Assembly (NCBI GenBank): GCA_964016885.1
Contig: OZ024760.1
Span: 21,886,001-21,950,000, forward strand
Reading direction: 5' to 3'
DNA: 64,000 nt
DNA from: Eledone cirrhosa
Lineage: Eukaryota
Positions 8,495-13,764 of the stretch are shown here, one piece after another. The notes under the pieces were generated by a model. The model had not been told where the DNA came from. It saw only the letters and a list, made by a program, of their open reading frames with translations, and did no database searches. Position 1 is the first letter of the stretch. Each line of letters begins with the position of its first letter. The translations under genes were made by a program, and so were the position numbers.

Positions 8495-11400
8495 CTACAG
8501 AACAATGTAGAGAGAAGGCCCATTTACACGGGCCATTCTCGCTTCTTTCACCCACCTTTCATAAAACTGTCTGGGACCAAGCACTTCTCTCTCCATCCTG
8601 ATTCTTCTTCCGAAGTGGTATCGGAAGAAGTAAACCAGGTGATGGCCGGAGAGAAAGTCACCCGACCTCAGACCTTTCAGGCGCGTCCACCACACAACCT
8701 CTTTCATCATGGCTATTACGCACAGAAAGACCGCCTCTGCTTCATTTCTGAAGGGAGGAGGCGGCTTGATGTTCACCACAGACTCGGCGGTTAATCGAAT
8801 CGGCGCCACACGCGACAGCAGTCGTTCGACGTAGCCCCACAGATCGGCAACGCCCGGGCAGTGTACCAGTGCATGCGCAACGGTTTCCTCGTCGCGCACG
8901 CATCTGGGACAGATCTTTTTCGCGGGATCCCTGCCCGGGCGCCCGTGTCTGTAGAGCTTTTCTCGAACGGGCAGAGCCCCCCGGTAACACTGCCAGGCTA
9001 GGGACCTCTGGAAGTTGTCCATGGGTCCCGGGCCGAAAGTTCTACCGAACAGGCTGGCCAGTTCGTCCTCCTCCATGCCTAGCGACTCTCCAAGGGTGTC
9101 GTCGCCCCTGCTAGCCACCAACCCTCTATAGAATGTCGAGGTGGATTCTCCACTGACAGTCGGGTCCGCTTGCCAGATAGCCGTGAGCGCCTGGGCACAC
9201 TCAGTGTGCCAGTTGCCCAGTTTTCTCGGTCTTTGCTTCACCCAGGATTGCAGTTCGGTGAGCGAGACGAGCTGTGGGAAGGCTCGCCTCACAAACGGGG
9301 CCCACACCGGCTGACCGTTGAGGAATACCTGTAGATGCCGTAGCCTCAATGCGTGCCTACGCATCAACAGCCACGGCATACCCAGCCCTCCTTTCGAAGG
9401 GTGCTGGCAGCAGATGGATCTCCTCACCATGGGAGGCCGCTTCTTCCAGAGGAACTGGAAGAGCATGCGTTCCATGATGGTGAGCTTTTCCTTGGGGCAA
9501 GGCACGACGGTCAGGCGGTAGTAGATGACGGACGCTATGTAAGCGTTCGTCACCTCCGCCCGACCTTTCAGTGATAGTTTGCACTTGGCCCACTTCTGGG
9601 TCAGCGCAAACACCCTGCTCGTCACCTCGCCCCAATTCTTCTCCACCTGGAGGTCCGGTCCGAACCAGACCCCGAGCAGCTTCACCGGGCCCTCCGTCCA
9701 CCGCCCGACGACACCGTCTAACGGCATCGGTTTGCCCCTCCACGTTCCGAGTTGCAAACCGACTGACTTGTCCTGGTTCAGCTTAGCCCCCGTCAGCCTT
9801 TCGTATTCCTCCAGTAGGGTGGCGATCGCCCCGATTTCCGAGGCGTCCGCCACCATTACTGTTACGTCGTCGGCATAGGCCGAGACCGCTTTGTGCAATC
9901 CCGGTTCCAGGGGTATGCCCCGCAGCAACTCCAACTTCCGCAGCAGTGGCTCGAGAGTCAATACGTACAGAAGGGAGGAGAGGGGGCACCCCTGTCTGAT
10001 GGATCGGGTGATTTGAAACGGCTCCGAGAGGTAGCCGTTTACTTTAATCCTAGAGTAGATGTTGCCACTGTGCATGGCAGAAATCCAGCCCCTGAAAACG
10101 GGTCCGAAGCCCGCCGCCGCTAGCACCGCATCCAGGTAACCATGGTCGACCCTATCGAACGCCTTAGATTGATCCAAGTTGATCAGGGCCCCACCAAAGC
10201 CGGGTTCGTAGCCAACCCTCTCTATGATGTATCGCATGAGGTGGAGGTTGTCGTGAATGGACCTGGACGGGATAGCGCATGTCTGCGCGTCTCCCACCAA
10301 ACCACCCACCACAAGCGCCAACCTCTTCGCCAACACCTTGGCCAAAATCTGTAACTCTGCATTCAGCAGAGTTATGGGCCTAAAGTTACTTAAGTCGTCC
10401 CCCTTGCTCTCGTCCTTCCTCACTAGCGTGACCACGCCCTTGGTCACAGAACAGGGAATTCTCCCGTTCTGTTGCCAGTTGCAATAGACAGCCTCGAGGA
10501 TTTCGGAGAACAAGACCGGCATAGCTAAATAAAGTTCGTATGGTAGACCATCGAGACCCGGGGATTTGCGTCTGCTGCATTGGCTGAGCGCTTCCCCGAT
10601 TTCAGTGGCTGTGATTGGCCCTTCGCAGCACTCCGCTTCGCCGCTCGAAAGACGCGGTAGACCGTCGAGGTATGGACCGAAGTCCACATCCCCGTCCGGC
10701 CCCCCGCCACCTCCGAACAGTCGAGCAAAGTGCCTTTGAAAGGTCTCGCACATTCGCTCAGGTTCAAGGATCACCCGTCCATCCTGGTCTCGCAAAGACC
10801 GAATGGTGGATTTAATCCCACTCTTGGCTTCTGTCACGCGGGCCCAGCTAACAGCTTTGGTCCCCTCGTTTCCTAAAGCACGTATTTTACTTCGGACAAC
10901 GCAGCCTTCGTGCTTCGCGTCAAAGAACTGGCTCAATGCCGTTCTCGTCGCTAACACTCTGGCTACGTCTCCGCTCCTAATCGCCTCTTCTAGTTTATCT
11001 GTTAACTCCCTTTCCCTCCTATTTCTATTCGCCGCTAGTTCCTTACTGTAACCTATCGAACTTACTCTAATCTCTCTCTTTAGAGATATCCACCACCTAC
11101 TGTTGACGATCGCTCCCGTCAACCGCATCTTAACTAAGCTACTAATCCGGTTTCTGTAATCTTTCTTTGTCGGTAAGGACAAGTTCATCTTCCAGTAACC
11201 GGGACCCTGTCTATGCGTTCTATCAAGGTTGACCACGCAGGTCACTAATTTGTGATCTGAATAGCCAACCATGATCAGTTCTGGACAACTAAATACGTCC
11301 CTATCCTTACTCCTAACCAAAAACCTATCTAGGTACGATCTAGATTGTCCACTGCGGTTTGCCCAGGTCCAGGTTGGCGCAGTTGGACAATCTAGTCGAA

Positions 11401-11928: not shown

Positions 11929-13764
11929 CTATTTTGGTGTTGAAAGTGAAGAAAGAAAAGCACTTACCTCTCCGGGTTGCGTAATTTCCATGGCATCAGG
12001 TGTGTTGGGTGGAGGGATGTTTTGTGGTGGTGTGGGGGTACACGTGTGTGGTGGGGTTGGGGTATTTGGAGTTGTGTCAGGGAGAGGGGCGGTTATGGGG
12101 AAATCTTTCAAGAGGACGCGATTCAACGGTTTTAAACAGGGGGGGCTCACGTCCCGTCTAAATTGTTCTTTTAAGGAACGATAAAGGTCCAGAGGGACCT
12201 TTATCATTTTTAAATGGGTGAAGTTCTCTGTTGAGATAAAGTTTGGCCCTTCGGTCTGCACCATAGGGTTATTGTTTATTAATTTAACCAGTTTTTTGTT
12301 TTCTTTATTTATATATGTGTATTGCAACGTCTTTTTTTGTGATGCTGTCAATGTTTCGGAGAGGGGAGGCGCAGATTTATTTTTGTTTGTTGAGGGTGGG
12401 GTGTTTTTGATTGGAGTTGGTGTTTGTGTGTGGGTTATTTGTGGTGTGCTGGGTGTGTGTTTTCTTTTTTTTCTTTTAACTTGTCTGAAGGCTTCTCCTC
12501 CTTCTTCTTCAGAAGTTGGGGGAAACTCTTCAGCGCTAGGTGGGAGGGACGTGTTGTGTGGTTGTTTTTTTTTTGCGGGAGGGGTAGATTTGTTACTGTT
12601 TTTTTTATTATTTGTTTGGAATGGGTTTTGTGGTGGTGGTGGTGGTAATGTTTGTGTCGTGCTTGTGGTTGGTAATGGTGGTGGTGATGTTTGTGTTGTG
12701 GTTGGTGGTGGTGATTTTTGTGTCGTGCTTGTGTTTGGTGCTGGTGGTGGTGATGTTTGTGTTGTGTTTGTGGTTGGTGGTGTCTGTATTTTGTTTGCTG
12801 TGTGTGGTATTAGTGTATTTTTGGAGGTGGGTGGTGCTGGTGTACTGTTTGTGGTGGGTGTGGGCAATAGTCCTTTTTGGGGGATACGTTTCGGGCAGTT
12901 AGCCTTAACGTGTCCCCTTTCCATGCATAAATAGCATGCTGGTCTTCTCCCCTCTACAATTATGTCTATTGGGGTAAGGTCATCCAGCCAGATGCGATCC
13001 GGGATTTGTGCTATTCTTTCGGGCCTCATTTGGACTAGTATGTCGAGGCCCATTCCCAGGAACGCATCTCCAGTTGCCTTCCCCATTGACAGCATAGTGT
13101 CTTCGCCCATATCAATGAAGCCAGCAATAGCCCACCAGAAGTCCATTGTGGGCAGCATTGTTTTTACTTTTACCCTCTGTGTTCTTCTACCCATGTAGGA
13201 GGGATAGAAGCTATATGTTGTCGACGAGAGTGGGCTTAGGGAAAGCTGAACCGCCGTTTCTTTGTCTCTTGTTAGGACCGAAATGCTGCCATAGAGTCGG
13301 TCCTTTCGTATGAAGAGAATATTCTTCATATAGTCTTTTAGGACTAACTCTATTTCCATTTGGCTGGGCTGTGCTGGCTTTCTTGACTGGTTTAGTATAG
13401 TTCTGTATATAACTGTGTTTTCTGCTCTGGCTTTCTTGAATTCTGGGGGGGAGTTAATGGAAAACATTCCGTTCTCCCCCAAAACAATATGTTTCTTTGC
13501 TTCGGCCAGTTTTTCTCTGGCGGCAGTTAGGTCAATTGGTGTGTATGTAATGGATTGCTTTGTTTTCTGGGCGAAAGTTGCCCTGTCGTTATTTGTATTA
13601 TTTTCTGTTTGTTTGTTTTCTGTTTGCTCATTTTCCTTAACATTTGTTTTTTCATTTTGTTTGTTTGTTTCAATGTCTAATTTTGTTGTAATTATTTTTT
13701 GTTCTTCAGACTTGGGGGGCGTGGCAGAGCTAATGGCAGACATGTCTGCCATCTTTTCCGCCAT
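11929..13764 (-). CDS. ORF1 gag-like nucleic-acid-binding protein of the Tx1 element
   Basis: First ATG at 13764 (the track start at 13791 is TTG). Single CX2CX4HX4C knuckle CYLCMERGHVKANC, then a Pro/Thr-rich tail with a basic KRKKRK patch. Lies directly upstream of ORF2. Confidence 0.88.
   Translation of the reverse strand: MAEKMADMSAISSATPPKSEEQKIITTKLDIETNKQNEKTNVKENEQTENKQTENNTNNDRATFAQKTKQSITYTPIDLTAAREKLAEAKKHIVLGENGMFSINSPPEFKKARAENTVIYRTILNQSRKPAQPSQMEIELVLKDYMKNILFIRKDRLYGSISVLTRDKETAVQLSLSPLSSTTYSFYPSYMGRRTQRVKVKTMLPTMDFWWAIAGFIDMGEDTMLSMGKATGDAFLGMGLDILVQMRPERIAQIPDRIWLDDLTPIDIIVEGRRPACYLCMERGHVKANCPKRIPQKGLLPTPTTNSTPAPPTSKNTLIPHTANKIQTPPTTNTTQTSPPPAPNTSTTQKSPPPTTTQTSPPPLPTTSTTQTLPPPPPQNPFQTNNKKNSNKSTPPAKKKQPHNTSLPPSAEEFPPTSEEEGGEAFRQVKRKKRKHTPSTPQITHTQTPTPIKNTPPSTNKNKSAPPLSETLTASQKKTLQYTYINKENKKLVKLINNNPMVQTEGPNFISTENFTHLKMIKVPLDLYRSLKEQFRRDVSPPCLKPLNRVLLKDFPITAPLPDTTPNTPTPPHTCTPTPPQNIPPPNTPDAMEITQPGEVSAFLSSLSTPK

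Follow-up and report, generated by a model that had tools for sequence, protein, structure and literature searches.

A conserved U1-type splice donor at the end of ORF1 in a LINE clade of Eledone cirrhosa, and a candidate intron spanning the whole of ORF2

The window analysed here, 64,000 nucleotides (nt) of Eledone cirrhosa DNA (GCA_964016885.1, contig OZ024760.1, positions 21,886,001 to 21,950,000), carries on its minus strand a full-length L1/Tx1-like long interspersed nuclear element (LINE) of a family designated A (8263..13965). Near the end of its first open reading frame (ORF1) lies a U1-type 5' splice site, GAG|GTAAGT (11962..11970, minus strand, as are all features of this element), which is conserved beyond chance. 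Sequence comparison makes it very probable that this donor is a U1-type element under selection. As the leading reading, and as a candidate not far short of an even chance, we propose that the whole of ORF2 may form an intron, as in Drosophila copia, the removal of which would give an ORF1-only mRNA. Under either this reading or its closest rival, in which the site serves to bind U1, a canonical donor kept at the end of ORF1 would imply that LINE expression is controlled by the spliceosome or by U1.

The original prediction had placed a GAG|GTAAGT near the end of ORF1 with its G at 11967, and the site is indeed present there, so that the intron would start at 11967. It is followed by a pyrimidine tract before the start of ORF2 (11939..11959), which was found in all families in variable length. 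The 24-mer on the donor side occurred in 379 copies of family A; GTAAGT came next in 360 of them and a letter other than G in none, and the five copies fetched out of the 19 lacking GTAAGT all read GTAGGT. The rest of the clade was surveyed by searching for the beginning of the endonuclease with a pattern blind to the donor, which gave 10,786 matches in the genome. In the first 30 loci of these matches GTRRGT (R, purine) stood upstream of the endonuclease motif 27 times, and the other three had two point changes and one deletion, each in single copies.

Full-length representatives of 18 families in two branches were then aligned, the ORF2 DNA of which was 69-86% identical to that of A. AG|GTRRGT with a pyrimidine tract directly before ORF2 was present in 18 of 18 sister families. 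Over the 18 families the donor positions -2 to +6 were 83-100% conserved, as compared with 39-78% upstream and 44-83% downstream; the rows were anchored on the donor, which makes the conservation of +1 and +2 partly circular, but the rank in a U1 score is independent of anchoring. In such a simple U1-pairing score the donor took first place among some 270 GT sites in 12 of the 19 rows and a place in the top five in 18. All variants (GTAAGT, GTGAGT, GTAGGT) were within the donor consensus. The distance from the donor to the endonuclease motif was 37-56 nt in the family representatives, and the spacer stayed pyrimidine-rich; this tract was ruled out as an acceptor for ORF2, since no AG occurs from the donor to the ATG in families C, E, F and H.

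When the ORF1 phases were taken from the MEI/MEV motif or from the open frame, the donor fell in phase 0 in A and D2, in phase 1 in D, D3, G, F, J, F2 and B2, and in phase 2 in C, H, I, B3, B, B4, E, E2 and K. Since it occurs in all three frames of ORF1, neither the protein nor the ORF1 stop codon explains it. The donor half of the original prediction is strongly supported, and the donor is more general than had been claimed, extending to the whole clade and to three reading frames. We regard it as very unlikely that the donor and the acceptor described below are inherited by-products, one of the context of the ORF1 stop codon and the other of the codons PSLxxxL-stop. The three donor variants do spell the three stop codons in the phase-2 families, the acceptor tract is coding, and all families share one ancestor; however, in phases 0 and 1 it is no stop codon, and there the donor has been retained over about 30% nucleotide divergence, with a neighbouring spacer of anywhere from 37 to 56 nt. 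Moreover, the best site near the ORF2 start had the donor form in 0 of 26 distant L1/Tx1-like metagenome elements (21-44% protein identity; 26 of 27 had upstream sequence, and the ORF2 start was approximate in six).

The candidate acceptor consists of the last codons of ORF2 and its stop TAG (8495..8517), and it ranked first of 111 YAG sites (Y, pyrimidine) in a crude pyrimidine score. It reads CCTTCTCTCTACATTGTTCTGTAG|GT, or ..TTCTGTAG|GT, with the G of the stop at 8495, as had been predicted; the join ..PGE|VKK* also holds in the sequence, and CTGTAG|GT was found in the relatives at 17897, 18296, 52276, 52665 and 35822. In family A the join would be followed by a stop 9 nt downstream. The 3' untranslated region (3'UTR), which would be the terminal exon (8263..8494), is purine-rich at its start and has TGA after VKK and AATAAA at 8276-8271. 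The top-ranked YAG, the purine-rich terminal exon and the stop 9 nt after the join make the acceptor plausible in family A.

According to the mechanism proposed, the conserved donor would likely bind the U1 small nuclear ribonucleoprotein and, in family A and most of its sisters, would likely be spliced to the ORF2 stop codon, by which all of ORF2 (3,473 nt) would be removed. The product would be an ORF1-only mRNA coding for a protein near-identical to the unspliced version (602 instead of 611 amino acids), and the unspliced RNA would serve as template and as the source of ORF2 by reinitiation, in family A at an ATA. With the stop just past the last junction the spliced mRNA would escape nonsense-mediated decay, and splicing would affect the ORF1:ORF2 ratio.

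The frames of the sister families favour such an acceptor. ORF2 ends in TAG in 16 of the 18 families and in TAA in E and E2. When the donor was joined to the family's own TAG, 13 of 16 families reached a stop, read in the donor's frame, within three codons, as against 7 of 32 wrong frames (p=0.004 in a naive permutation; 5 of 6, p=0.067, when collapsed to six lineages), and where the frame has changed, as in A, B2 and D2, a nearby stop is again reached.

Several points weigh against the whole-ORF2 intron. The frame-match test was devised after the data had been seen, and both scoring schemes are crude and home-made. Family K had been predicted beforehand to be in phase 1 and was found in phase 2, which leaves a 27-codon tail, and the frame match fails in B and B4 as well; the copies of family M were too decayed for the frame test (2 of 9 reached the junction). 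By the crude pyrimidine score only A and H have the ORF2 stop as their best YAG downstream of the donor; in the other families its rank is 6-31. The commonest family, E, of which at least 3,735 copies have the donor exon (a copy count only) and in which ORF2 is open, keeps the donor, intact in 30 of 30 sampled copies, but its ORF2 ends in TAA, with a weak AAG|GT only 7 nt later. The pyrimidine tract of the acceptor overlaps the conserved codons P-S/T-L, and its pyrimidine content is only 55-65% in the D/E/F branch. Thus, of the conservation proposed for both sites, that of the donor stood clade-wide, while the acceptor TAG is lost in E and E2 and its tract coincides with conserved codons.

Retroposed copies joining ORF1 directly to the 3'UTR were likewise looked for and none was found in the six family groups searched. 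Exact splice junctions of family A numbered 0 as against 638 unspliced 3' ends, and the three non-TAG matches at the junction were all point mutants. Spliced retrocopies were 0 of 3 in C, 0 of the 20 inspected out of 24 in the B group, 0 of 1 in H and 0 of 18 in E, and D gave no matches (the denominators of the searches were uncounted for C, B, D and H). Since ORF2-less RNA has to be mobilised in trans, this absence is expected under the cis preference of LINE RNA mobilisation (PMC5860796). It does argue against abundant germline spliced RNA copied efficiently via its 3' tail. A large HAL1-like family containing ORF1 only was not found either: a probe from the middle of ORF1 gave 469 copies as against 379 at the donor, and 10 of 10 extra copies fetched were older variants bearing ORF2. 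The original interpretation is partly supported, with a strongly supported donor and an acceptor that is plausible in family A, but the acceptor is lost in E, the frame match fails in B, B4 and K and no retrocopy turned up in the family groups searched.

Internal deletions were considered as traces of splicing and rejected: those of six family A copies and of one E copy (L481) have short microhomology or inserted letters at their joints, and in no case is the donor linked with an AG. The deletion of about 234 nt in copy L224 can be read as GT..AG only by way of a GGT microhomology and was rejected as weak. No 11968->8494 joint was present among the 15 joints listed (435 further ones existed) in four contig sets over 8280-13300, which is not counted as evidence. 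Two observations from run X4 (88 million letters, of a kind not on record) were left uncounted as well, namely that near-exact contigs span both sites unspliced (8280-8863 and 11747-12093), and that the depth was 131-337 in ORF1 contigs vs about 24-35 in ORF2/3'UTR contigs, contig depth being unable to rank parts of a gene. The family seen in the loose ends of X4 had 0 matches in the genome.

The same observations bear on a second reading, which we consider only slightly less probable than the first, namely that the donor is kept to bind U1 and not, or not mainly, for splicing to the ORF2 stop. With U1 bound there, the A-rich ORF1 would be shielded from premature cleavage and polyadenylation or the full-length RNA otherwise stabilised, and splicing would be minor or directed to other acceptors. 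This would agree with the conservation of the donor in E and E2, where the acceptor is not conserved, and with the lack of spliced retrocopies in the searches above. ORF1 contains about 36-41% A in young intact families, and 11 of the 19 rows have A(A/T)TAAA hexamers upstream of the donor, at a distance of about 270-350 nt; in the family A element of the window three AATAAA hexamers within ORF1 (12275..12381), 313-414 nt upstream of the donor, are possible cryptic polyadenylation signals. The conserved U1 site of an Arabidopsis Ty1/copia element also represses premature 3'-end formation (PMC5580714). However, the hexamers of the LINE are coding and upstream of the donor, whereas the sites of that element (EVD) are inside or downstream of its intron, and U1 protection leaves unexplained both the frame-matched stops after the ORF2 TAG and the top-ranked acceptor in A and H. 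U1 protection and ORF2 splicing can coexist, as in EVD.

Splicing of the kind proposed is known for long terminal repeat (LTR) elements. In Drosophila copia, splicing out of the whole pol gives a subgenomic gag RNA (Yoshioka 1990, via PMC5580714). An intron of about 3 kilobases (kb) over the whole enzyme region is removed, the mRNA of the structural protein keeps its normal 3' end, and the unspliced RNA is both template and enzyme mRNA (PMC5580714). However, copia is an LTR element with a single ORF in which splicing was demonstrated (PMC5580714), whereas the present LINE is a bicistronic non-LTR element in which the stop codon of ORF2 would itself serve as acceptor in a candidate splicing event. 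Of the features of copia-type splicing, the clade shares the conserved U1-type donor where the structural ORF ends. The acceptor at the end of the enzyme ORF and the early stop after the junction have candidate counterparts: ORF2 ends in TAG in 16 of the 18 families, which is top-ranked in just A and H and absent from E and E2, and 13 of 16 have the early stop (p=0.067 by lineage, with the advance prediction for K failing). In EVD (shGAG) of Arabidopsis a canonical U1 site, likewise conserved, directly follows the structural protein, a stop comes shortly past the junction, and U1 also blocks premature polyadenylation; the EVD intron of about 300 nt around the protease is combined with premature termination (PMC5580714), whereas the candidate intron is 3.47 kb long and the native 3'UTR would be kept.

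Functional splice sites in an L1-clade LINE are known from the SpORF2 and SpIRE forms of human L1 (PMC2896524, PMC5860796). There, however, the donors are in the 5'UTR and the splicing removes 5'UTR/ORF1, which is the opposite product, and the spliced forms, seen as dead ends, leave retrocopies (131 of 6,609 full-length; PMC2896524, PMC5860796), whereas the present donor is at the end of ORF1 and spliced retrocopies were not found in the family groups searched. Introns were mentioned for the TART antisense RNA, L1, Tad, kangaroo-1 and Penelope/Athena (PMC1636488), and an octopus repeat annotation describes active L1-Tx1 families with splicing unmentioned in its main text (PMC13282606). In the literature searched, at the level of titles and beginnings of abstracts and with subscription papers and Repbase outside its scope, neither an ORF2-spanning intron nor a conserved donor closing ORF1 appeared for any LINE; annotations of the Repbase type might mention the motif.

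The start of ORF2 in family A, overlooked in the original prediction, is unusual as well. The sister families have a Kozak-type ATG there (one decayed F copy has ATC), and in family A it is replaced by ATA within AAAATAG (11929..11935), which overlaps the ORF1 stop TAG and sets ORF2 at -1 to ORF1. The start reads AAAATAGA in 28 of 28 parsed copies (30 sampled), hundreds of young copies have an ATG-less ORF2, and the first Met, codon 35, falls downstream of the first endonuclease motif. In 16 ATG-less copies the substitutions shared by at least three copies were 15 nonsynonymous to 25 synonymous, vs 176 to 94 among singletons (Fisher p=0.0014). The ORF2 of family A thus remains under purifying selection, which suggests that it is likely still translated. 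Reinitiation at the ATA overlapping the ORF1 stop appears the likeliest route and a -1 slip on A_AAA_TAG a minor option; the precedent of potato virus M for frameshifting was treated with caution (PMC5009743). An ATG-less ORF2 under selection would be an example from nature of a LINE reverse transcriptase expressed from a non-AUG start or by frameshift. Alisch is said to have reported in 2006 that the ORF2 of human L1 can work without its AUG.

Just inside ORF2 an RNA stem-loop is predicted (11845..11898), conserved in 17 sister families too, with some compensatory pairs: 94.7% of cells are paired and two-sided changes occur in 5 of 16 pairs, a test which relatedness can inflate. The parallel with the UAAUG stop-start coupling of SART1 and the termination-reinitiation of L1 consists in a stop/start overlap at the ORF1-ORF2 boundary and in an RNA structure beyond the start of ORF2 (PMC3894237, PMC5972666), the difference being that family A has ATA instead of ATG (an A-TAG overlap). 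The donor motif could accordingly be part of a module for reinitiation at ORF2, made up of the motif, the pyrimidine spacer, a strong Kozak context and the stem-loop, and resemble a donor only by its letters. The motif does lie closely upstream of where ORF2 starts, the ORF1 stop often falls within it, the stem-loop is placed as in SART1 (PMC3894237, PMC5972666), and family A keeps ORF2 under selection with no ATG. Nevertheless we consider this explanation unlikely, as the conserved footprint is exactly -2 to +6 of the U1 pairing region with only A/G swaps at +3/+4, and the motif does not shift with the ORF1 stop when the frame changes.

LINEs are generally considered to owe their ORF1 excess to inefficient translation of ORF2 from a single bicistronic RNA, and the splice sites of human L1 are regarded as harmful. 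If the whole-ORF2 intron were true, the spliceosome would set the ORF1:ORF2 ratio, and one young family would do so with an AUG-less ORF2. In its widest form the reading, to which we give rather less than an even chance, would be that a LINE clade with over 10,000 near-full-length copies arrived independently at the strategy of copia: a regulated ORF2 intron with its own stop as acceptor and with downstream stops co-evolving with the donor frame.

Short copies that begin near the acceptor were rejected as support for splicing, since the AG is retained in them and most start at microhomologies resembling the target. A B-group copy (35589..35828, minus strand) starts at CTGTAG; this copy, at 35822, had been taken as a hint of splicing, but its AG is retained and its 5' end fits a (TATC)n microhomology. 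Another short B-group copy (18276..18543, plus strand) has its 5' end 21 nt before the end of TAG (18296), at TATC microhomology. As both keep the AG, they derive from unspliced RNA. Of 37 truncations within 400 nt, seven were within 25 nt of the stop, most directly after TATC-type repeats. The same internal TATCATTTTGG site, which matches the (TATC)n target, was the point of 5' truncation in independent copies, namely the copy of sister family B at 17772..18139 (plus strand, TAG at 17897) and L060, L061, L069, L070 and L075, a sample biased by the query; the TATCATTTTGG site is a truncation hot spot driven by microhomology. Two further truncated copies of sister families lie at 52197..52911 (plus strand), with TAG 52276 of the K type and TAG 52665 of the B4 type. 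A short H-family 3'UTR insertion, L486 (G000:C21:9495241, minus strand), begins at the acceptor AG; it has extra 3' sequence and a 22-nt flanking duplication, and lies outside microsatellite.

The host genome is of 3.0 Gb and microsatellite-rich. The family A element is inserted in (TATC)n, which flanks it on both sides, array copies are about 5.7 kb apart, and full-length copies elsewhere are about 98-99.8% identical. The best-scored 40 of 1,677 candidates were 100% identical over 601 nt, which indicates that family A is a young LINE. ORF1 (11929..13764) has a putative zinc knuckle, visible as a CYLC..GH...NC motif, with a weak Pfam zf-CCHC match below the cut-off (E=0.018). The ORF2 frame (8495..11932, 1145 codons) contains apurinic/apyrimidinic endonuclease, reverse transcriptase and zinc-binding parts, matching Exo_endo_phos (E=1.8e-11), RVT_1 (E=5.4e-24) and, below the cut-off, zf-RVT (E=2.8e-5). 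A CCHC zinc knuckle in ORF1 is of the Tx1 type and microsatellite-targeted insertion is typical of Tx1 LINEs; the label L1/Tx1-like is drawn from the order of the ORF2 domains and from such general features of the clade. A search of viral contigs for relatives of the element found none.

One branch has (TATC)n tails and the other (D/E families) has (ATT)n tails, and head-to-tail arrays mix families. The 379 donor-site vs 638 3'-end matches of family A suggest an unusually high share of long copies. L152 combines an ORF1/ORF2 junction of family G with a 3' end of family E, and is likely an inter-family recombinant or a nested insertion. The 3' end of the element (8265-8494, minus strand) folds more stably than shuffled sequences (z=-3.5), and its terminal tail hairpin, common to the families seen, is likely a recognition site of the ORF2 protein. 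At 48139-48405 (minus strand) the window holds the decayed remains of a relative that is more distant, with 37% identity to the C-terminus of ORF2, and at 34012-35325 and 15132-15827 minisatellite arrays with open frames and units of about 54 and 126 nt, respectively. The first array resembles a repeated C-terminal piece of a LINE (..MRWLGHVLR..), which we take to be RTE-like.

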